Source: Minisyncoccia bacterium
GTDB lineage: Bacteria > Patescibacteriota > Minisyncoccia > Phycocordibacterales > UBA9973
Assembly: GCA_049317285.1 (NCBI GenBank)
Contig: JBMOIO010000002.1
Location: forward strand, 15,312-79,311
Length of the DNA: 64,000 nucleotides
Direction of reading: 5' to 3'
Shown: piece by piece, positions 27,590 to 42,562 of the stretch
Numbering within the stretch: position 1 is the stretch's first letter
Layout: each line of letters starts with the position of its first letter
The notes under the pieces: generated by a model
What the model saw: only the letters and a program-made list of their open reading frames with translations
Told to the model about the DNA's origin: nothing
Databases searched by the model: none
Made by a program: the position numbers and the translations under genes

Positions 27590-29563
27590 TTAACATCTAA
27601 ATTGCGGCCAAACCTCAACTTCAGTTGAAGTTGTTGAAAAGCACTGCGAATCTATATTCGGAGGAAACAACCCGGCGTAAGGTGTTGACGGTCCGTACTC
27701 TTCTATACAGCTTTCACCTGCAGGAATAGTGACCTCTTTTGTTTCAAAACCAATAAATGAAGCATAGAACCTCCATCGCGCCGTAAATGTTACAGGGTTC
27801 GGGAGAGTGTATGTCTGTGGCGGATATGGGTCCCCAATATTCCACTCTTGTGCAAGACAGATACGAATAAGTCTTTTATAGTTACCCCAAAATCCACATG
27901 AACCCGGAATACATCCAAATGAGGATCCAACAGGGTCATGGGTGTACACCATCCCTGAGGCAGGTATCTTTTGTACGGCGTCTTGTACCTTTATCCCTCC
28001 CTTAAAGCTCGCTGAAAAGACCCCTGCAGAGGCTTGCGCTGTACCAATCGTTGCTGTCCCAAAAAGACTTCCACCGGAAGAAATACTGTTTTCACCTATA
28101 ATCGAAACTAGTGCTCCATTTACACCTCCTTCAAGCGAAGCAGTGTCGACATTCGTTGATTCTGATTGAATCGATGTCGTAACAGAAATGGTTTCATTTT
28201 GCTGATACGAGCTTTTGTTGGTATTTATTGTGAAATGAAGCGGGCCGTTTGCCGAACCCTGAATCGTATACGTTGCCGCAGAAGCAGTAGAAGTAATTCC
28301 CCAAGCAAATAAGAAGAGGAGAAGAGCAATGGTATTTACTGTCGCACTATTATTAGCAGCCTGCTTTTTCTTGATATACCACAGTACTGCACCCAAGAGT
28401 GCAAGTACTCCAAGAACCAATAGTGCGATAGTGCCCCATTTTACGGGACGCTTCACTGAAGTAGTCTCAAATACAACAGACATATCATCAAATACTTCCC
28501 CTGTTGCGTCCTTCAATACAAGTGTCACTTCTGGATTGTAACAAGCATTAAGAATAGGAATCTCTATTGTAGAAAAGACGCTTCCTTCATCAAGTACAAG
28601 CAGAGATTCATATGCCGCAGCACAGCTTCGCCCTGTATCGCTCTTTATTACTACATTCGCCACTATTTCCTTTGTAGTAGCAGACCACAAAAGAGAAAGT
28701 CGCGCGGTTTCATTTTTAATATAAAAATCCTTATCAAGAGTCATATTGGCAATCTTTGCGGTCGGACCAGCAACAGTGTATGGAAAAGATATCATGCCAG
28801 ACGCACCATCAAGCGTGACAGTAAGGTTATATAACCCCGCTTTCTCGCTACGAGGAAGCGTAAGGATGAGCGGCTGTTCTGGCTGTTCAGAGAGTGCAAT
28901 TGCTCCAGTATCTCCTCCTACAACTGCAATCTCTTCACCAAATGCACTCCCTTCGCGGGTTATATAGCGAGGAGTAACAGAAAGGGGGGCTCCTGTCGGG
29001 TTTTTTATTACGCACAAAAGCCGAAACGATTCTTCTGGCAAAAGAATAACGTTTGCGTGGGGTATATACCCCGTCGCAGTGACAGGTTTCACTTCAGTTC
29101 TGCAAGAGAGAGGGTCGATGGAGACGCCGTTTTCTGATGCAACAAGCGTTACTTCTCCTGCAACTGTTATTCCGAACAGAAAACCGCTTTGGTTTCGGGC
29201 GCGCACGAGAACCGTATAGGATCCATCGAGGGTTGTGGGTACATCATAAATAACTTCGCGTGAAAGAGAGCTATTCGGGGCAAGTGTCAAAATTTCTTCA
29301 TATATTTTCTCGTCAACAAGGGTCTGCTTACCCCCTTCATTACTCACTAAGCTCACGCTATAGCGAACATCGGACTGCATCCCTTCACCGTTGTTGAGCT
29401 CAAACCCGACCGTAATCTCTCCTCCTTCATACGAGAGTACTCGCGCGTTTTGAATATTAACCGAGGCAACCTTGACCGGTCCATTTTCTGATACTTGCGC
29501 ACTTGCCACTATAGGGAAGAGCGCGAGTGCAGCGAGAAGAAATGAAAATAGATAGCGATTCAT
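27590..29563 (-). CDS. large surface protein, two extracytoplasmic domains separated by a TM hairpin
   Basis: start reset to MNRYLFSFLLAALALFPIVASA; central WGTIALLVLGVLALLGAVLWYIKKKQ and IALLLFLFAWGITSTASA hydrophobic segments. Confidence 0.5.
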   Translation of the reverse strand: MNRYLFSFLLAALALFPIVASAQVSENGPVKVASVNIQNARVLSYEGGEITVGFELNNGEGMQSDVRYSVSLVSNEGGKQTLVDEKIYEEILTLAPNSSLSREVIYDVPTTLDGSYTVLVRARNQSGFLFGITVAGEVTLVASENGVSIDPLSCRTEVKPVTATGYIPHANVILLPEESFRLLCVIKNPTGAPLSVTPRYITREGSAFGEEIAVVGGDTGAIALSEQPEQPLILTLPRSEKAGLYNLTVTLDGASGMISFPYTVAGPTAKIANMTLDKDFYIKNETARLSLLWSATTKEIVANVVIKSDTGRSCAAAYESLLVLDEGSVFSTIEIPILNACYNPEVTLVLKDATGEVFDDMSVVFETTSVKRPVKWGTIALLVLGVLALLGAVLWYIKKKQAANNSATVNTIALLLFLFAWGITSTASAATYTIQGSANGPLHFTINTNKSSYQQNETISVTTSIQSESTNVDTASLEGGVNGALVSIIGENSISSGGSLFGTATIGTAQASAGVFSASFKGGIKVQDAVQKIPASGMVYTHDPVGSSFGCIPGSCGFWGNYKRLIRICLAQEWNIGDPYPPQTYTLPNPVTFTARWRFYASFIGFETKEVTIPAGESCIEEYGPSTPYAGLFPPNIDSQCFSTTSTEVEVWPQFRC

Positions 29564-29674
29564 AAAAATAAAAATTGTATTACAATTCAGTATACCTAAC
29601 TTAATCCTACTATAACAACAAGTTATACCCATATATAAAAAACCTCTTTGCTATAAAGCAAAGAGGTTGGAGGA

Positions 29675-30418
29675 TTATGGTACAGGAATAAGCACTCGCT
29701 GATCTCTATATGTCCATATACCAACTCCTGGAGTACCCTGTGCCGGTCGCTCAAGGAGGAGTGTTTCATTAGAAAATGAAGCGCTGTACTCCACTCCCTC
29801 AATCCAAAGCAGAAACTTACCTTCGTGATTTCGAAATTTCCAGGGAGTGGTCCCTATTGGAATTTCAGAACATGCCGGATTTGGTGAACGGCTTCGGTGG
29901 TACCGTTTATCAAGATAAAAAGTTCGGACCATTCCCCATTCGCAGCTAGTTGATGCTGTAATGGCAATTTTTTGCTCAGATCCACCAGCAGTCTCAACTT
30001 TCCAGTAGTATTCGGCAGTGGTTTTCCAGGAAGCGGCGTCTTTATTTCTCAACAACAGCAACATGTTTTGATCAGGCAATGCAACTGAAACCTTTACAGT
30101 GCTAGTAGTGGTACCTCCGGGACCGGTTGCAGAAAATACTATGCTGGTATCGCGCTTCAGAGCACGCAACATGAATGAGCCACTAACCTTTCCAATATCC
30201 TCACTGGCACGTCCTGGCCAGGACACACTGATTCCGTCTGAAATAAACGAAACTTTTGTGCTATCGCCGTACCCTACCATTGAAGGCTCGACTGAGACTG
30301 TCATGCTTGGTTTTGGAAGGACAGGAGGAGGGGGAGCAACAGGATTAACCGGTTCAATATGCTCGGGTTTACAACTCATAACGACTATCACTACGAGAAG
30401 CAAGTACTTTTTTTTCAT
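29675..30418 (-). CDS. putative lipoprotein
   Basis: MKKKYLLLVVIVVMSCK signal/lipobox-like, Pro-rich linker. Confidence 0.45.
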   Translation of the reverse strand: MKKKYLLLVVIVVMSCKPEHIEPVNPVAPPPPVLPKPSMTVSVEPSMVGYGDSTKVSFISDGISVSWPGRASEDIGKVSGSFMLRALKRDTSIVFSATGPGGTTTSTVKVSVALPDQNMLLLLRNKDAASWKTTAEYYWKVETAGGSEQKIAITASTSCEWGMVRTFYLDKRYHRSRSPNPACSEIPIGTTPWKFRNHEGKFLLWIEGVEYSASFSNETLLLERPAQGTPGVGIWTYRDQRVLIPVP

Positions 30419-31947: not shown

Positions 31948-32478
31948 ATGAATTTACTTCACGAAATTACTGCCGGAAACAATGTGCCTGACATTATCAA
32001 TTGTATAATTGAAATTCCAAAAGGCTCAAAAAACAAATACGAAATCGACAAGGAAACCGGCCTCATCATGCTCGACCGTGCAATGCACACTTCACAAGAC
32101 TATCCGTTTGACTACGGCTTCATGCCACAGAGTCACTGGGAAGATGGCGACCCGCTTGATGTAGTCGTCCTTACTACCTACCCGCTTGCGCCCGGCATCT
32201 TGGTAAAAGTTCGCCCGGTCGGCATCGTCAACATGATCGACGACGGCGACTCTGACGCAAAAATTATTGCCGTACCAGAGAAAGACCCGCGATGGGACGA
32301 TGTGCAAGACCTCAGTGATGTAAACAAACACACCGTCAAAGAAATCGAACACTTCTTCCTGACCTATAAACAAATTCAAAAGAAGGCCGTTTCAATCGAT
32401 AGTATTGGAAACAAAGCCGACGCTCAGGCTGCAATCCTCAAGAGCCAAGAACTCTACAAAGAAAAGTTTCAGAAATAA
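31948..32478 (+). CDS. ppa: inorganic pyrophosphatase (family I)
   Basis: DPLDVVVL, DDGDSDAKIIAV. Confidence 0.9.
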   Translation: MNLLHEITAGNNVPDIINCIIEIPKGSKNKYEIDKETGLIMLDRAMHTSQDYPFDYGFMPQSHWEDGDPLDVVVLTTYPLAPGILVKVRPVGIVNMIDDGDSDAKIIAVPEKDPRWDDVQDLSDVNKHTVKEIEHFFLTYKQIQKKAVSIDSIGNKADAQAAILKSQELYKEKFQK

Positions 32479-32493
32479 TCGAAAAAATATACT

Positions 32494-32529
32494 GTAGCAA
32501 AAAACTCCCGAAAGGGATTTTTTTGCTAC
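32494..32529. terminator. bidirectional terminator between ppa and the DGR RT
   Basis: gtagcaaaaaa..ctcccgaaaggg..ttttttgctac nested hairpin with T/A runs on both sides. Confidence 0.6.
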
Positions 32530-32541
32530 CAATCCATATTA

Positions 32542-33513
32542 TTAGATTCGCATTCTTTGTCTGATTTCATACGTATCACCATGCATCAACAATCCGCGAT
32601 ACGAGTTAACCGTTTCCGACTTAGGATATCCCTTAAGCTTTTTGAATATCTTTCTCTTTGTGGTGGTTCGTATTTGACGATGATAGGGAAAATGTATCCA
32701 CCCAAGAAAATCGACACCTGTTGCGAATGTCTTGATGTACACTTTGTGCTCGTGCATTTGAAGCTTTAACTTTTCATTCAAGAAAGCATGGATTTTTTGA
32801 AGAATGCCTTCCAAGTATTCCTTTGTACTGGACAGTATGACAAAATCATCCGCATAGCGGATATAGTATGTTACTCGAAGCCCCTGCTTCATGAACATAT
32901 CAAATTCATGCATGTATACATTTACCAACAATTGAGAAGTAAGGTTTCCGAGCGGTAACCCCACTCCTTCTCTCGTCGTATGAAAACTTGAGGTAACTTC
33001 CCGGATGAGCCACAACAGTTCTTCATCCTCAACATGACGCTTCAAAATTAAAACAAGTATTTCATGATCGATACTTGCAAAGAATTTCTTGATGTCACAC
33101 TTGAGTACATAACATGTCCTCGTATTGTTCTTTGAAACCCTCAGGGCAAATTCCTGAAAACGATCAATTGCTCTGTGAGTTCCCTTGTTCACACGACATG
33201 AAAACGAGTCATGAATGAATCTCTGTTCAAAATAAGGATAAAGCGTCTTATATATTAAATGATGTAACAGTCTGTCTCGGACAATCGCCTTGTGGATATT
33301 CCGAGGCTTTGGGTCAGAGATATTAAAAGCCCAGTATGGCGCATGAGTGTACGTCCGACGGTGAAGCAAGGTGTGCAAGTCGACCAGGTTGTCCGAAAGT
33401 TTCGCCTGGTATTGTATGACATCTTTTTTATGTCGCTTTCCACGAAGAAAACGCTCCCAGGTAACAAGGAGGTTTTCCATCGATATGATATCTTTGTATT
33501 TATGAATCAGCAT
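32542..33513 (-). CDS. diversity-generating retroelement reverse transcriptase
   Basis: 323 aa; RT motifs 1-7 including YIRYADDFVIL and the DGR-specific LPLGNLTSQL (I/LGxxxSQ) in place of the group II QGxxxSP. Confidence 0.9.
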   Translation of the reverse strand: MLIHKYKDIISMENLLVTWERFLRGKRHKKDVIQYQAKLSDNLVDLHTLLHRRTYTHAPYWAFNISDPKPRNIHKAIVRDRLLHHLIYKTLYPYFEQRFIHDSFSCRVNKGTHRAIDRFQEFALRVSKNNTRTCYVLKCDIKKFFASIDHEILVLILKRHVEDEELLWLIREVTSSFHTTREGVGLPLGNLTSQLLVNVYMHEFDMFMKQGLRVTYYIRYADDFVILSSTKEYLEGILQKIHAFLNEKLKLQMHEHKVYIKTFATGVDFLGWIHFPYHRQIRTTTKRKIFKKLKGYPKSETVNSYRGLLMHGDTYEIRQRMRI

Positions 33514-33531
33514 ACATCAACCAATATCACA

Positions 33532-33544
33532 CCCCCCCCCCCCC
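33532..33544. repeat. C13/G13 homopolymeric tract
   Basis: 13 consecutive C on plus strand, 19 nt upstream of the RT start codon and inside the 5' region of the Avd-like frame. Confidence 0.9.
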
Positions 33545-33560
33545 GACACAAACTCCTCTT

Positions 33561-33908
33561 GTCCTTGTCAGAGCGAAGGAAAGTTATGAAGTTTGGCATA
33601 AGCACTTAGTAAACATAAACCGTGTAGACAGATACACCATCGGTGCAAAAATTGACGAGGTATTTCTTTCCTTGCTTGAAAATATTTTTAGAGGTATCTA
33701 TGCTCACGACAAATTTGAGAAGTTATCTGTGGTATCACAGTCACTCGGGAAAAATGATTTATTGAAATTCTTCTTGCAGATCGGTTGGGAACAAAAAGTT
33801 GTTGACCATAAAATCTATGGTGCTTTAATCCTTAAACTTGATGAAGTAGGACGAATGCTCAACGGCTGGAAGAAAAATCTTCAAGAAAAAACTCCCACTA
33901 ACAAGTAG
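33561..33908 (+). CDS. Avd-like four-helix-bundle protein (23S rRNA IVS-protein / bAvd family); start codon uncertain
   Basis: frame continuous from ~33546 to 33908 (..ESYEVWHKHLVNINRVDRY..IGWEQKVVDHKIYGALILKLDEVGRMLNGWKKNLQ); ORF track gives only 33672..33908 from a TTG; no in-frame ATG; opposite strand to RT, TR and target. Confidence 0.45.
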   Translation, partial: VLVRAKESYEVWHKHLVNINRVDRYTIGAKIDEVFLSLLENIFRGIYAHDKFEKLSVVSQSLGKNDLLKFFLQIGWEQKVVDHKIYGALILKLDEVGRMLNGWKKNLQEKTPTNK

Positions 33909-33928
33909 TGAGAGAAATCAAATAAGTA

Positions 33929-34046
33929 GCAGAAGCAAAGGATGCAGTTGTCAGAATTCCAAGTCTTGGAGAAGTTCCCGAGGTTGAAGTTCCAGTCACC
34001 GTCCGAGTTGCGGTTCACGTTAGGCACCCTGTGGTTGCCATCCGAG
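33929..34046 (-). repeat. DGR template repeat (TR)
   Basis: ~118 bp homologous to the 3' end of the target gene; minus-strand sense is AAC-codon rich (..GNH..PNVNRNS..WNFNLGNFS..WNSDNC..). Confidence 0.85.
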
Positions 34047-34298
34047 TACACGCAAGCAGTGTACGATGGGTCATCCGTCCCACCGAAACCAGCGCGTGCC
34101 AATTTCTGCATTTTACTTGGAGCAACAATAGTTCTATCGAGCTCACGGACGCATCGCACCGACTAATTTGTTTTTTCATAAGAGGAGGTACCGAACTGCA
34201 AAGACATACCCGACAGTTTCTCACGAATACCCCTTACGAGATTTCGATGCCATGAAGCCGTAACCACATGATCGTATCTACTATCCTTGTGCAGTATA

Positions 34299-34331
34299 AA
34301 TAAAAAAGGGCCTTTGCAAAAGCAAAGGCCC
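34299..34331 (-). terminator. strong hairpin + T-run downstream of the DGR target gene (terminator and/or DGR target-proximal hairpin)
   Basis: gggcctttgc-aaaa-gcaaaggccc 10-bp GC stem; minus strand is followed by TTTTTTATTTAT; lies ~60 nt 3' of VR. Confidence 0.75.
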
Positions 34332-34384
34332 AGTAAAGGTTCAAAGGAACAAATAACATGTTTATGTGGCAAATGACCAAAGGT

Positions 34385-35107
34385 CTATTTGTCGCAGAAG
34401 CAAAGGATGCAGTCGCCAGAACCCCAAGGCCCGGAGAAGTACCCGAGGCCGAAGCCCCAGCCACCGCCCGAGCCGCGGTACACGTCAGGCACCCTGTGGT
34501 CGCCAACCGAGTCGCTCCATAATGTGTCTTTTTCATCGAAGGAAACCGTCCATTTTTCTACCGGAAATTCATCCGCCTTAAGGTCTTGTGCCAGAGTTAA
34601 ACCCTGACCGCCGACCAGAATGGCGCGCTGTTTTTTCAGGAAGTTCATGCAGTCTTCGCTCGATACCGTTTCCAGAACAGGGAAGATTTTTACAAGATAG
34701 GTTTTTCCGGGCTCCAGTTTGTTCGTAGCGTTCTCATAATTCGAACTTTTTAATGCATCATTGTAATGATAAGTCGTTTTCAGCTTTTTTGTCTTTTTAC
34801 CGAACTGGTCGATCTGTTTGTCATCATCATAATCCATTGGAACGGTCAGATCGAATTCAACAAGAGCCGGACCAAACCGTTGATCGATAACGGCAAGCTT
34901 TTTGAGCTTTCCGATAACAAATTCTTTGAAGCCGTTTTGCAGCAAGTCACCTTTTTCAATGATTTCCTGCGCTTCTTCTTTTGAAAAGTTGAAGGTTTCG
35001 AGATCAATGGCGCTTATGCCATCTTCGAGGAAACGTCTAAGGAAACGTCTAATTTGTTTGCGTTGTCCATCTGTCATTAATTCCGGGTGCGTGATCTGGT
35101 TAGTCAT
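34385..35107 (-). CDS. DGR target protein with C-terminal variable region
   Basis: 240 aa; the C-terminal 40 aa (..GDHRVPDVYRGSGGGWGFGLGYFSGPWGSGDCILCFCDK) correspond to TR with substitutions only at template A positions. Confidence 0.85.
   Translation of the reverse strand: MTNQITHPELMTDGQRKQIRRFLRRFLEDGISAIDLETFNFSKEEAQEIIEKGDLLQNGFKEFVIGKLKKLAVIDQRFGPALVEFDLTVPMDYDDDKQIDQFGKKTKKLKTTYHYNDALKSSNYENATNKLEPGKTYLVKIFPVLETVSSEDCMNFLKKQRAILVGGQGLTLAQDLKADEFPVEKWTVSFDEKDTLWSDSVGDHRVPDVYRGSGGGWGFGLGYFSGPWGSGDCILCFCDK
34394..34512 (-). repeat. DGR variable repeat (VR)
   Basis: ~21 mismatches to TR over ~118 bp, every one at a plus-strand T of TR (A in sense orientation); 19-nt invariant 3' end. 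Confidence 0.85.
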
Positions 35108-35305
35108 CGCGATAGTGTTTTAAATGAGCTAGTCGGTTTATCTGCCGAAACAGGAATAAGTATCCCTTATCTGAATATATGATAACATATATATTAATAA
35201 TGTCAATAATTGTTAAATGGGGTATATTACATAACAATTCCGGGGCTTTGCAAGTAATACCCTTCCCTTTGGGTCGTCTCTATGCTATAAATACGTATAT
35301 ATAGT

Positions 35306-39823: not shown

Positions 39824-42562
39824 GTGCGGTACAATATACGCATGCCTCCACACGGAAACGATACAGAAAAGTTCACTACCCCTTCAGCTGAACTTGCGCA
39901 CCTCAGTGACCGCGCTCACAAAGAGTACATTCTCCAAAATGAAGCGCACAAAACACTTGAGGATGCTGCACGCGCTTCAGTCGAGTCTTATGCTCGCGCT
40001 GAAGCGCGCGACTTTTTACACGAAACAACTGTTCTTCCAAAACACGAAACAGAAAGTCTTGTGCTCAAACTCAAGCCCGAAGCTCATGACACAAAAATGG
40101 AAGAGCTCTTTGGCATCATGCTCTCCAAAGGAGTAAAGAATGCGCTCGACGTGGTAAAACAGATGAACGACTCACATCTCGAAGACGACTTCCATCGATT
40201 CTTGGTGCAGTATCTCCACACGATCGGCGCATTGCCCGGAATAAAAGAATCCTCTTCACTCTACAAAGAACTCGAACACTCACTCTTCACTGTCACTCTT
40301 CCACCGCGAACCGACACTGCTGACTTCAAATCATTCATCCAGGCGATGAAGCAATTTTATGCTGGCATGCTTGCCTTGTGCGAAAATTCAAAATCATACT
40401 ACACGCTCGAACTTGCCGTACAAAACCATGGGCGCGATATTGCACTCTATGCTTCTGTTCCTCGCGTACACGAACAGACATTTGAAAAACTCGTGAGCTC
40501 CTACTACCCTGGAGCGAGTATTGAAGAAGTAGTCGACGACTACAATATTTTCACCATCGAAGGAAACGGTATTGCGGCTTCAACTGCGCAGTTGAGCGAG
40601 CCCGCGATTTTTCCGCTCGCAAGCGATGAGTCATTTTCTCATGACCCCCTTGTCGCACTCATCGGCTCACTTTCAAAACTAGAACAACAAGGCGAAGGCG
40701 CAGCTATTCAGGTCACTATCGCGGCAGACACAGCAAACAGCAACCGCCTCTATACTTCCATCATTGACGCGGCACAACAGGGCGATGTTGAAGTAAAAAA
40801 ACAGTACAAAGAACTGACCGAAGGAATGCTCACCAGTCTCGGCAAAGGAGTGCTTTCATTTTTCACTACAGATACTCCAAAAGAATCAGACTCAACAAAA
40901 GAAAAAGTTGTCGATACCCGAGGTATTGAACTTGCGCGGATAAAAAATCAAAGCCAATCCTTGAAAGCGGGCATCCGCATTATTACCGCCGCGCCGACAC
41001 TTCTTCGCGCACAAGCGATGCTTTCTTCAATAAAAACATCGTTTGCACAATATGCATTGGTTGAGAGTAATTCAATCAAATGGAACGACATTGCAACAGC
41101 CCGCATTCATGCTGTTGCACGCGACTTTTCATTCCGCACCATCAATGATGCTGAGCTGATGACACTTTCAGTCAACGAACTCGCGACACTCTTTCACTTC
41201 CCTGTCGGCCTTACTGCCGCAAGCGAATTGAAAGAAGTCACAACCGCAAGCGCACCCGCTCCAAGTACTATGCAAAATAGCGGCGGCGTCTACCTCGGCA
41301 CCAACACTTATCGCGGCACCACTACCGATATTTTTCTTTCAAAAGAAGACCGGGTCCGCCACTGCTATGTCGTCGGTCAGACCGGTACCGGTAAGACCAC
41401 CATTTTAAAAAACATGGTGATACAGGATATTAAAAACGGCAACGGCGTGTGCTTCATCGACCCGCACGGAAGCGACCTGCAAGATATTCTTGCAAACATC
41501 CCCCCTGAGCGACTCGACGATGTCATCTACTTTGACCCGGCATACACCGAGCGCCCGATGGGGCTCAATATGCTCGAATACGATGTGCGCTTCCCTGAGC
41601 AAAAGATTTTTGTTATCAACGAACTGATGGGTATCTTCAACAAGCTCTTTGACATGAAAACAGCGGGCGGCCCGATGTTTGAGCAGTACTTCAGAAACTC
41701 GGCCGGACTTGTCATGGAAGACCCCGAAAGCGGTTCCACCCTCCTTGAAATCGGGCGCGTCCTTTCCAATAAAGCATTCCGGGAAATGAAACTTTCGAAA
41801 TGCAAAAACCCGATTATCAAACAGTTCTGGGAAAATGCAGAGAAAACCACCGGCGAAGCATCCTTGGCAAACTTTGTGCCCTACATCACCAACAAGTTCG
41901 ACGTCTTTATTTCAAACGACATCATGCGCCCAGTGATTGCACAGCAACACAGTGTGTTGAACTTCCGTGACATCATGGACAACAAAAAAATTCTTTTGGT
42001 AAATCTCTCCAAAGGGCGCCTGGGCGACATCAACTCGCACCTCATCGGTCTCGTCCTCGTCGGCAAGCTCACGATGGCAGCACTCTCCCGTGTGGACATG
42101 GTCGGCCGCGGACCGATCAACGACTTCTACCTCTACATCGATGAGTTCCAAAATGTGACCACTGACTCGATTGCGACCATTCTCTCTGAAGCCCGCAAAT
42201 ACCGCCTCGCGCTCACTGTCGCTCACCAGTACATTGAACAGCTCGAAGAAAACATCAAAGACGCAGTGTTCGGAAATGTGGGCTCTATGATCATCTACCG
42301 TGTCTCCCCTGAAAATGCGGCAATGTTTGAAAAGCAATTGTCGCCGACATTTACACCAAACGATATCCTCACCCTCCAAAACTTTAATGCTATCGCAAAA
42401 ATATTGGTAAATGGTGTTCCGGAAAAGCCGTTCAACCTCCGCATTCCTCCCCCACCAGTCGGAAACATGGAGATCACCGAAAAGGTCAAACAACTCTCAT
42501 ACCTCAAATACGGCCGCCCTCGCGCCGAAGTCGAAGCCGAAATCTTCGCACGGTATAAATAG
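39824..42562 (+). CDS. soluble P-loop ATPase with TraD/VirD4/TraG-type (T4SS coupling-protein-like) C-terminal half and a ~500-aa unknown N-terminal domain
   Basis: Walker A VVGQTGTGKTT; Walker B/TraG-D_C-like FYLYIDEFQNV...ARKYRLALTVAHQYIEQL...GSMIIYRVSPENA; no TM segments. Confidence 0.6.
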   Translation: MRYNIRMPPHGNDTEKFTTPSAELAHLSDRAHKEYILQNEAHKTLEDAARASVESYARAEARDFLHETTVLPKHETESLVLKLKPEAHDTKMEELFGIMLSKGVKNALDVVKQMNDSHLEDDFHRFLVQYLHTIGALPGIKESSSLYKELEHSLFTVTLPPRTDTADFKSFIQAMKQFYAGMLALCENSKSYYTLELAVQNHGRDIALYASVPRVHEQTFEKLVSSYYPGASIEEVVDDYNIFTIEGNGIAASTAQLSEPAIFPLASDESFSHDPLVALIGSLSKLEQQGEGAAIQVTIAADTANSNRLYTSIIDAAQQGDVEVKKQYKELTEGMLTSLGKGVLSFFTTDTPKESDSTKEKVVDTRGIELARIKNQSQSLKAGIRIITAAPTLLRAQAMLSSIKTSFAQYALVESNSIKWNDIATARIHAVARDFSFRTINDAELMTLSVNELATLFHFPVGLTAASELKEVTTASAPAPSTMQNSGGVYLGTNTYRGTTTDIFLSKEDRVRHCYVVGQTGTGKTTILKNMVIQDIKNGNGVCFIDPHGSDLQDILANIPPERLDDVIYFDPAYTERPMGLNMLEYDVRFPEQKIFVINELMGIFNKLFDMKTAGGPMFEQYFRNSAGLVMEDPESGSTLLEIGRVLSNKAFREMKLSKCKNPIIKQFWENAEKTTGEASLANFVPYITNKFDVFISNDIMRPVIAQQHSVLNFRDIMDNKKILLVNLSKGRLGDINSHLIGLVLVGKLTMAALSRVDMVGRGPINDFYLYIDEFQNVTTDSIATILSEARKYRLALTVAHQYIEQLEENIKDAVFGNVGSMIIYRVSPENAAMFEKQLSPTFTPNDILTLQNFNAIAKILVNGVPEKPFNLRIPPPPVGNMEITEKVKQLSYLKYGRPRAEVEAEIFARYK

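Follow-up and report, generated by a model that had tools for sequence, protein, structure and literature searches.

A length-variable poly-C run at the start of avd, a candidate switch of adenine hypermutation in a Patescibacterial diversity-generating retroelement

Positions 32,542 to 35,107 of the window, by which we mean the whole 64-kb stretch of a Minisyncoccia contig that was analysed, hold a diversity-generating retroelement (DGR) with a gene for a reverse transcriptase (RT), the accessory gene avd, a template repeat (TR) and a target gene whose end forms the variable repeat (VR). The components and the signals around them are collected in Table 1. On the minus strand they follow each other in the order target/VR, hairpin, TR and RT, just as a reading of the sequence alone had first described it, and the Avd-like gene which this sequence-only reading placed between TR and RT on the opposite strand is indeed found there.

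Table 1. Features of the DGR locus, in coordinates of the window
Feature	Position	Strand	Basis or remark
RT gene of DGR type, 323 aa	32542..33513	minus	RVT_1 match, PDB relatives, LGNLTSQ and YADD motifs
avd start codon ATG (33502) and leader codons MNQHTSTNIT, in the ATG frame	33502..33531	plus	12-nt divergent overlap with RT start
Homopolymer of 13 C (poly-G on the RT strand)	33532..33544		between avd ATG and Avd body, frame-breaking
Avd body reading frame up to its TAG stop	33545..33908	plus	Pfam bAvd match
Hairpin and U-run just 3′ of TR, probable terminator of the TR RNA	33882..33914	minus	terminator scan, alignment A5
TR, 119 nt	33929..34047	minus	ungapped repeat alignment, 29 adenines
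Structured non-coding RNA domain of 7 helices, directly 5′ of TR	34061..34271	minus	covariation, alignment A4
Promoter-like site for the TR RNA, TTTGCA-16-TATACT	34293..34320	minus	consensus scan
GC-rich hairpin (10 pairs) and T-run downstream of the target gene, intrinsic terminator	34298..34331	minus	scan
VR, last 40 codons of the target gene	34394..34512	minus	ungapped repeat alignment
Target (variable protein) gene, 240 aa: helical N-terminal part, then putative C-type-lectin-like domain (residues ~80-240)	34385..35107	minus	
Promoter-like site upstream of the target gene, TTGACA-16-TATCAT, 11/12 matches, TG extension	35179..35206	minus	pattern match only

The signature of the retroelement is carried by its two repeats. 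Pairwise alignment of TR and VR runs over 119 bp without a gap at an offset of 465 and contains 20 mismatches; tabulated by template base, all 20 of 20 fall on a plus-strand T, i.e. on an A in the minus-strand sense of the TR. Of the 29 adenines in the TR, 20 differ in the VR, against 0 differences at the other bases (hypergeometric p ~3e-17). The repeat pair and the restriction of its differences to template adenines, both proposed by the sequence-only reading, are thereby confirmed, with minor corrections to the figures: The imperfect repeat is real and 119 bp rather than ~118 bp long, as the TR extends to 34047; the mismatches number 20 instead of ~21, position 33928/34393 being the first base outside the repeat; and the invariant 3′ end is present and comprises 20 nt (33929..33948), not 19. 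The homology breaks off abruptly at both edges. That the VR forms the end of a 240-aa target gene likewise holds, since it coincides with the last 40 codons of 35107..34385. With respect to the codon positions 1, 2 and 3 of the target frame, the TR adenines are distributed 13/15/0 (counting the 28 of 29 that belong to complete codons); the TR includes 8 AAC codons, and its 18 variable codons correspond to ~2.5e16 possible protein variants. No further VR for this TR was found in the 64-kb window.

Related loci were drawn from two sources: A scan of 185,579 species genomes with an alignment of the target protein yielded 46 loci, all of which belong to the Candidate Phyla Radiation (CPR), and a search with an alignment of Avd supplied 80 metagenomic loci. 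Two of these relatives (L113 and L115), compared over 2.3 kb, differ by 11 substitutions in the VR, every one of which stands at a TR-adenine position. Judged from this pair, the DGR family is active; the element in the window may be active at present as well.

The RT matches Pfam RVT_1 (6.9e-24), and its best relative of solved structure is the 328-aa chain 8ub7_A, which we take to be the RT of the Bordetella phage DGR (bRT); the match covers residues 8-299 at 2.2e-39, compared with 5.5e-21 for group II intron RTs and ~1e-20 for retron RTs of solved structure. In the alignment to 8ub7_A, LPLGNLTSQ is placed opposite IPIGSLTSQ and YADD opposite YMDD. The motif (I/L)GxxxSQ is a hallmark of DGR RTs. 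The sequence-only reading had pointed to LGNLTSQ and YADD at this place, and the solved relatives bear it out that the RT is of the DGR type. No protein identical to the RT of the window is on record.

The body of Avd was recognised by Pfam bAvd above the cut-off (2e-10, 41.5 bits; cut-off 40) and by NCBIfam DivGenRetAVD under the cut-off (1.4e-12, 47.9 bits; cut-off 80), and a PDB search with a profile of Avd relatives returned only 4dwl (Bbp7, a phage Avd), weakly (E 0.68). It is intact, contains no internal stop and shares 55-80% identity with its relatives. In the frame of this body, the first ATG, GTG or TTG does not occur before 33672; the only nearby ATG, at 33502, stands in another frame, with 13 C in between. 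Because this run separates the ATG from the Avd body, the word 'complete', by which the sequence-only reading had characterised the DGR, overstates its functional state: in two assemblies avd is without a canonical in-frame start. All components of a DGR are present and the element is genuine; functional completeness is not demonstrable from the avd start.

The ATG in question is the reverse complement of RT codon 4 (CAT), so that avd and RT start back to back, their diverging start codons lying within an overlap of 12 nt, ATGAATCAGCAT. A -10-like TATGAT box is located at 33484..33489; among the relatives, a TATGAT(AT) box is conserved ~12 nt upstream of the avd ATG, within RT codons. The arrangement hints at an avd mRNA that may be nearly leaderless. 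NCBI annotates the gene (P0121) as a 130-aa 'four helix bundle protein' which begins at 33516 with a non-canonical ATC (33516-33908), and gene callers in other genomes cut Avd to 113-115 aa or let it begin at a GTG in another frame. The annotation of avd in CPR DGRs is therefore inconsistent.

We turned to the run itself, which is the sole G/C run of at least 8 nt in the 64-kb window and which comprises the same 13 C in an independent Logan assembly, that of SRR30676221. One additional C or two fewer would join the avd ATG to the Avd body. When the site was compared across the genomic and metagenomic loci (94 unique loci), 68 of them (within L003-L127) were found to carry a run of 7-15 C in the same place, with a mode of 10, and the run is kept down to ~38% Avd identity. 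Furthermore, a screen of 743 kb of related loci detected 69 G/C runs of at least 8 nt, 63 of which are the avd poly-C run. A strongly conserved sequence flanking the run was considered and not adopted, as its only notable features are an A at position -1 and a high AT content.

The segment that precedes the run behaves as coding sequence. Among 47 run-bearing loci, 43 have no stop in the ATG frame between the ATG and the run, and the other two frames are stopped in 42/47 and 39/47. Relatives without the run possess the same ATG and read MSEHKETTKS..QxPLVLVR; the protein database, in turn, holds many full-length Avd proteins with prolines at the site of the run, for example MSEH...PPP.Q.PLVLVR. 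The two groups of loci differ in the phase of this ATG: Where the run is present, it shares the frame of the Avd body in just 10 of 61 loci; where the run is absent, it does so in 19-23 of 26 (Fisher p 6e-7 to 2e-10). The out-of-frame run-bearing loci are divided between the two other phases (29 and 22 of the 61). Loci in which the run is interrupted or short (L024, L058, L127) have the ATG in frame.

The same contrast is apparent among closely related proteins. Clusters of run-bearing Avd sequences (at least 90% identity) comprise mixed phases and proline counts, and their start forms are mixed as well (MSEH..PP(P)QAQAPL, VNI..PPP and truncated calls). One cluster from Nomurabacteria contains MSEHMSKNSTPPQAQAPL, a version of it with PPP, VNICLKIAPPP in the second frame and calls truncated to 115 aa; in other clusters PPP occurs next to PPPP, or PPP next to PPPPP. 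In three run-less clusters, on the other hand, all members read through from the MSEH start and none is truncated: of 23 calls, 17 have 132 aa, 1 has 130 aa and 5 are extended upstream. At the DNA level, the pair L113 and L115 has 9 and 8 C, respectively, between identical flanks; apart from this and the 11 substitutions in the VR, the two contigs differ by one further substitution over the 2.3 kb compared. The contigs L096 (1-9), L087 and L090 end at the run or within a few bases of it, as is expected if heterogeneity in length breaks assemblies.

The pattern that emerges is, as far as sequences can tell, that of a simple-sequence contingency locus, namely a long homopolymer in the 5′ coding region which shifts the reading frame and whose length is polymorphic, the latter as observed in the relatives. 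The sequence evidence for hypervariability of the run is good, and from it we infer a phenotypic switch. To envisage what would be switched, one may proceed by analogy with the Bordetella phage DGR: The TR would be transcribed on the minus strand, the RT-Avd complex would copy the TR RNA into complementary DNA (cDNA) with misincorporation opposite adenines, and the cDNA would replace the VR in the target gene, the TR remaining unchanged; each of the 18 variable codons could be recoded in this way, which would open up the variant space calculated above. Slippage would alter the length of the run and thus move avd among the three reading frames, whereby the supply of Avd, and adenine mutagenesis along with it, would toggle stochastically. 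Since the phage RT needs Avd (10.1101/2023.10.23.563531), an Avd gated by the run would gate mutagenesis. We give about even credence to the interpretation that avd is a contingency gene in the majority of CPR DGRs, its poly-C run switching adenine hypermutation on and off, and that the window has been caught in a phase devoid of a canonical start. Its present state, 13 C in a phase without any canonical start, would probably be OFF or very low.

Several points weigh against a contingency gene. The deficit of in-frame states among run-bearing loci is modest (16%, where 33% would be expected; p 0.0025). In 41 of 68 run-bearing loci, translation of a slightly shortened Avd could begin at a GTG or TTG immediately past the run, even though the window has none, and the GTG inside ATGAGTGAAC provides a second-frame start in many relatives; for the window, NCBI resorts to the ATC mentioned above. 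Finally, homopolymer lengths in short-read assemblies can err, and the two assemblies with 13 C may share reads.

The explanation that survives best next to the contingency gene is that the run constitutes a programmed recoding site, at which RNA polymerase slippage or ribosomal frameshifting on CCC proline codons would generate a constant small fraction of full-length Avd. The run reads CCC in all three frames and would hence be an ideal slippery site; the 51 of 61 run-bearing loci that are out of frame exceed the two-thirds expected by chance; and a stable hairpin of 5-10 bp lies directly 3′ of the run (avd sense) in ~37% of run-bearing loci, compared with 11% at the matching site of run-less loci. 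The sequence of this hairpin varies by subclade, and the loci that possess it include L008, L025, L051, L089, L110, L114 and L119. The window is not among them: what can be folded after its run is unconvincing (-3.3 kcal/mol, z -0.4), and a universal post-run hairpin acting as frameshift stimulator was not adopted for these reasons, i.e. its presence in only ~37% of the loci and its absence from the window. Moreover, programmed frameshifts usually keep one direction, whereas the frame offset is not fixed here (29 versus 22 loci, with 10 in frame), and the length of the run differs at the DNA level among near-identical relatives. A permanently tiny supply also seems ill-suited to an Avd that joins each RT as a pentamer (10.1101/2023.10.23.563531). 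On balance, we regard recoding as unlikely.

A second possibility is that the run matters on the opposite strand, as poly-G within the promoter or 5′ leader of the RT gene, where it would act, for instance, by setting the geometry of the promoter or the folding of the RNA; any influence on the frame of avd would then be a by-product, with translation of Avd beginning past the run. This idea draws on the location of the run 9-25 nt upstream of the RT ATG, on the -10-like box (TATAAT, TAAAAT or TGTGATATT) that often directly follows it, with TTG before it, and on the GTG/TTG codons just past the run already mentioned. On inspection, however, the -35/-10 spacing proved inconsistent across loci, and for this reason the run was not adopted as a sigma-70 promoter spacer for RT. 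Such a role would, in addition, leave unaccounted for that the window and 26 other loci have no canonical start past the run, that the segment from the ATG to the run is constrained to one frame with the others closed, that run-less relatives hold the ATG in frame, and that full-length proteins of the form MSEH...PPP...PLVLVR are present in the protein database. We consider a role of the run as a poly-G element distinctly improbable.

Thirdly, the avd of the window might be a decaying pseudogene in a DGR fossil, with differences in run length merely reflecting sequencing or assembly noise. The missing canonical in-frame start, the error-proneness of homopolymers of at least 10 nt in short-read data and contigs that break at the run, such as L096, are all compatible with decay. 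What speaks against it is the intact Avd body with its identity to relatives, the divergence of the VR at adenines only and at no other base, and the VR of L113 and L115, which likewise differs in the manner of a DGR; neither decay nor noise would be expected to conserve a run down to ~38% Avd identity, and the run-less clusters are free of any length noise. We therefore hold this explanation to be very unlikely. Lastly, an RT derived from a group II intron or a retron next to a chance or duplicated repeat, an alternative which the sequence-only reading had asked to be excluded and for which the best NCBIfam model, group_II_RT_mat (TIGR04416, 150.6 bits), might be cited, is refuted and deserves practically no credence, given that this score is half of the cut-off of 300, that the retron St85 model reaches 67.2 bits against a cut-off of 235, that the protein has only 323 aa and no maturase or endonuclease extension, that no intron or retron RNA family of Rfam is found in 32400..35300, that the closest solved relative is a DGR RT and that the mismatches are confined to adenines.

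Apart from avd, the locus is distinguished by the organisation of its RNA. The 260 nt between the terminator of the target gene and the TR are non-coding and yet highly conserved. An alignment of 13 loci (A4) gives a consensus of 7 helices with 58 pairs: 95.8% of its cells are paired, compared with 38-50% when the partners are slid by 1-3 columns, and compensatory changes are seen in 37 pairs, whereas sliding leaves 8-13; of 500 shuffles, none comes up to these figures. The window itself forms 55 of these 58 pairs (34271..34061). The domain contains the invariant single-stranded motifs UAUGAAAAAA and AGUCGGUG, and the invariant motif AGTCGGTG is present at the expected site in nearly all loci with an Avd identity of at least ~58%, becoming rare in more distant ones. 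No Rfam family matches this 5′ RNA domain; in the region as a whole Rfam yields only two weak matches, one to suhB on the terminator hairpin and one to the rimP leader (E 0.52, 32458..32555).

Upstream of the domain, the TATA.T box of the promoter-like site is conserved in 13 of 13 aligned loci, and this site presumably serves as the promoter of the TR RNA. At the other end, a terminator-like element begins 14 nt past the TR and consists of 9 pairs followed by TTTTTTCTTG; its hairpin is conserved in 13/13 loci, with compensatory changes in 3 pairs, and its U-run is conserved, too. This hairpin is antisense to the conserved codons QEKTPTNK of the Avd C-terminus, so that the same bases would encode the end of a protein and, on the other strand, the probable terminator of the TR RNA. 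Taken together, the conserved -10 box, the structured 5′ domain of ~210 nt, the TR and the terminator indicate that the TR RNA is probably a separate transcript of ~400 nt, which converges on avd and has its large structured part 5′ of the TR; the ends of this transcript are presumptive.

The target protein itself has no match to any known family; an identical protein is on record from a metagenome-assembled genome of Minisyncoccia at NCBI. Its 136 homologues come from Patescibacteria only and are conserved except at the positions encoded by TR adenines. Residues 80-240 are modelled by AlphaFold with a predicted local distance difference test (pLDDT) value of >90, and a Foldseek search of the model against the PDB returned no significant match. 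Beyond the identical 20 nt at the 3′ end of the VR and the abrupt end of homology, the 10-bp GC-rich hairpin follows 62 nt downstream of the VR; it resembles a terminator by virtue of its T-run, and its stem covaries across loci (columns 91-98 with 114-121). Hairpin-type repeats downstream are present in just 34% of the DGRs surveyed by Wu et al. (PMC5758913). Directly behind the VR and the stop codon (34340-34393), short conserved inverted repeats centred on CTTWG occur in registers that differ from locus to locus; possibly they correspond to the hairpin by which the phage element retrohomes.

Concerning the classification of the element, the DGR of the window is chromosomal: its surroundings encode NusA, inorganic pyrophosphatase, trigger factor, ClpP and RNase Y, and a scan of viral contigs with the Avd alignment retrieved 0 relatives, so nothing points to a phage-borne element. 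Architecture B3 of Wu et al. (2018), to which 90% of their CPR set belong (PMC5758913), is defined by the order TR-(avd)-RT and a reverse-strand avd, as found in the window, and Roux et al. (2021) report a clade of cellular DGRs that is restricted to Patescibacteria (PMC8144416). The same cassette in the same order recurs in ~22 of the 46 genomic loci that carry the target family. In view of the published architecture and these loci, an avd on the opposite strand is the norm for the lineage. A chromosomal DGR of a Patescibacterial (CPR) lineage with architecture B3 (target/VR, TR, inverted avd, RT) is hence the best explanation of the locus, and we hold it with high confidence. With the B3 type (PMC5758913) or clade 2 (PMC8144416) the element shares the order of components, the inverted avd, the adenine-specific substitutions, the location on a cellular chromosome (here in a metagenome-assembled genome of Minisyncoccia) and a target without known sequence family, and there is no architectural difference. 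The DGR of the window is thus a member of an already described CPR type and not new as such. In the searchable literature, from which Paul et al. 2017 is excluded, we found no report of the poly-C run in avd, of the RNA structure 5′ of the TR or of the terminator embedded in avd, and likewise no paper that connects homopolymers, phase variation or slippage with DGRs or with avd.

Roughly one in two genomic loci with a homologue of the target, in which the end CLLCFCD is conserved, have neither RT nor Avd within 6 kb (L002, L012, L013, L015-L017, L019, L021, L022, L032-L035, L037-L040 and L042-L046); L017 and L043 represent two copies of the target on a single contig. Such homologues may be diversified in trans or may be orphaned targets. 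In another relative (L047; 1507-2914, 5535-6681), the DGR cassette is situated between serine recombinase/resolvase genes and a ParB-methyltransferase-recombinase gene, a hint that mobile elements can carry the cassette. The window itself encodes a 912-aa homologue of TraG/VirD4-like coupling proteins (39824-42562), 5 kb away from the DGR, and upstream of nusA two open reading frames of 680 and 247 aa (27590-30418) without a Pfam match.

Comparison with the DGR of Bordetella phage BPP-1 (mtd-avd-TR-brt) shows how far the likeness extends. The RTs are homologous over nearly their full length, and both systems have a four-helix-bundle accessory protein Avd, an AAC-rich TR, an invariant 3′ end of the repeat and a VR at the C-terminus of a lectin-like fold, which in the window's target is putative. 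The phage DGR, however, is phage-borne and has all components on one strand, whereas in the window avd is inverted and contains a homopolymer. The RNAs differ, too: most of the cis-acting RNA elements of BPP-1 are situated in the spacer Sp, 3′ of the TR (10.1101/2023.10.23.563531), in contrast to the window, where the large conserved structure precedes the TR and a terminator follows within 15 nt.

With regard to the run, the relevant precedents lie outside the DGRs. Phase variation by poly-G/C runs is known from contingency loci of Campylobacter, Neisseria and Haemophilus, and the genes under such control mostly specify surface structures or restriction-modification enzymes. The gene that would be switched here, by contrast, encodes a cofactor of a targeted hypermutator, which would place one mutational switch over another. 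Otherwise the likeness to contingency loci (e.g. PMC5084427) is close: a G/C homopolymer of 8-15 nt resides in the 5′ part of the coding sequence, close relatives cover all three phases, and interrupted or lost runs go along with a gene locked in frame.

As a locus, this DGR is one more among the thousands that have been catalogued, and its interest lies in the run and in the arrangement of the RNA. The 5′ RNA domain together with the terminator behind the TR represents a candidate for the minimal DGR RNA of the lineage, arranged unlike the only one that has been studied biochemically. It could guide reconstitution and also improve the annotation of DGRs, in which gene calls for avd are frequently wrong or cut short at the run. 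How DGRs are regulated in cells and how useful variants are retained is poorly understood; a run that gates an obligatory Avd would offer a concrete and testable answer, and one that would apply to a deep lineage of the CPR, the group richest in chromosomal DGRs. If avd is indeed a contingency gene, members of this lineage could generate new forms of their variable protein in bursts and afterwards fix one that proves useful.

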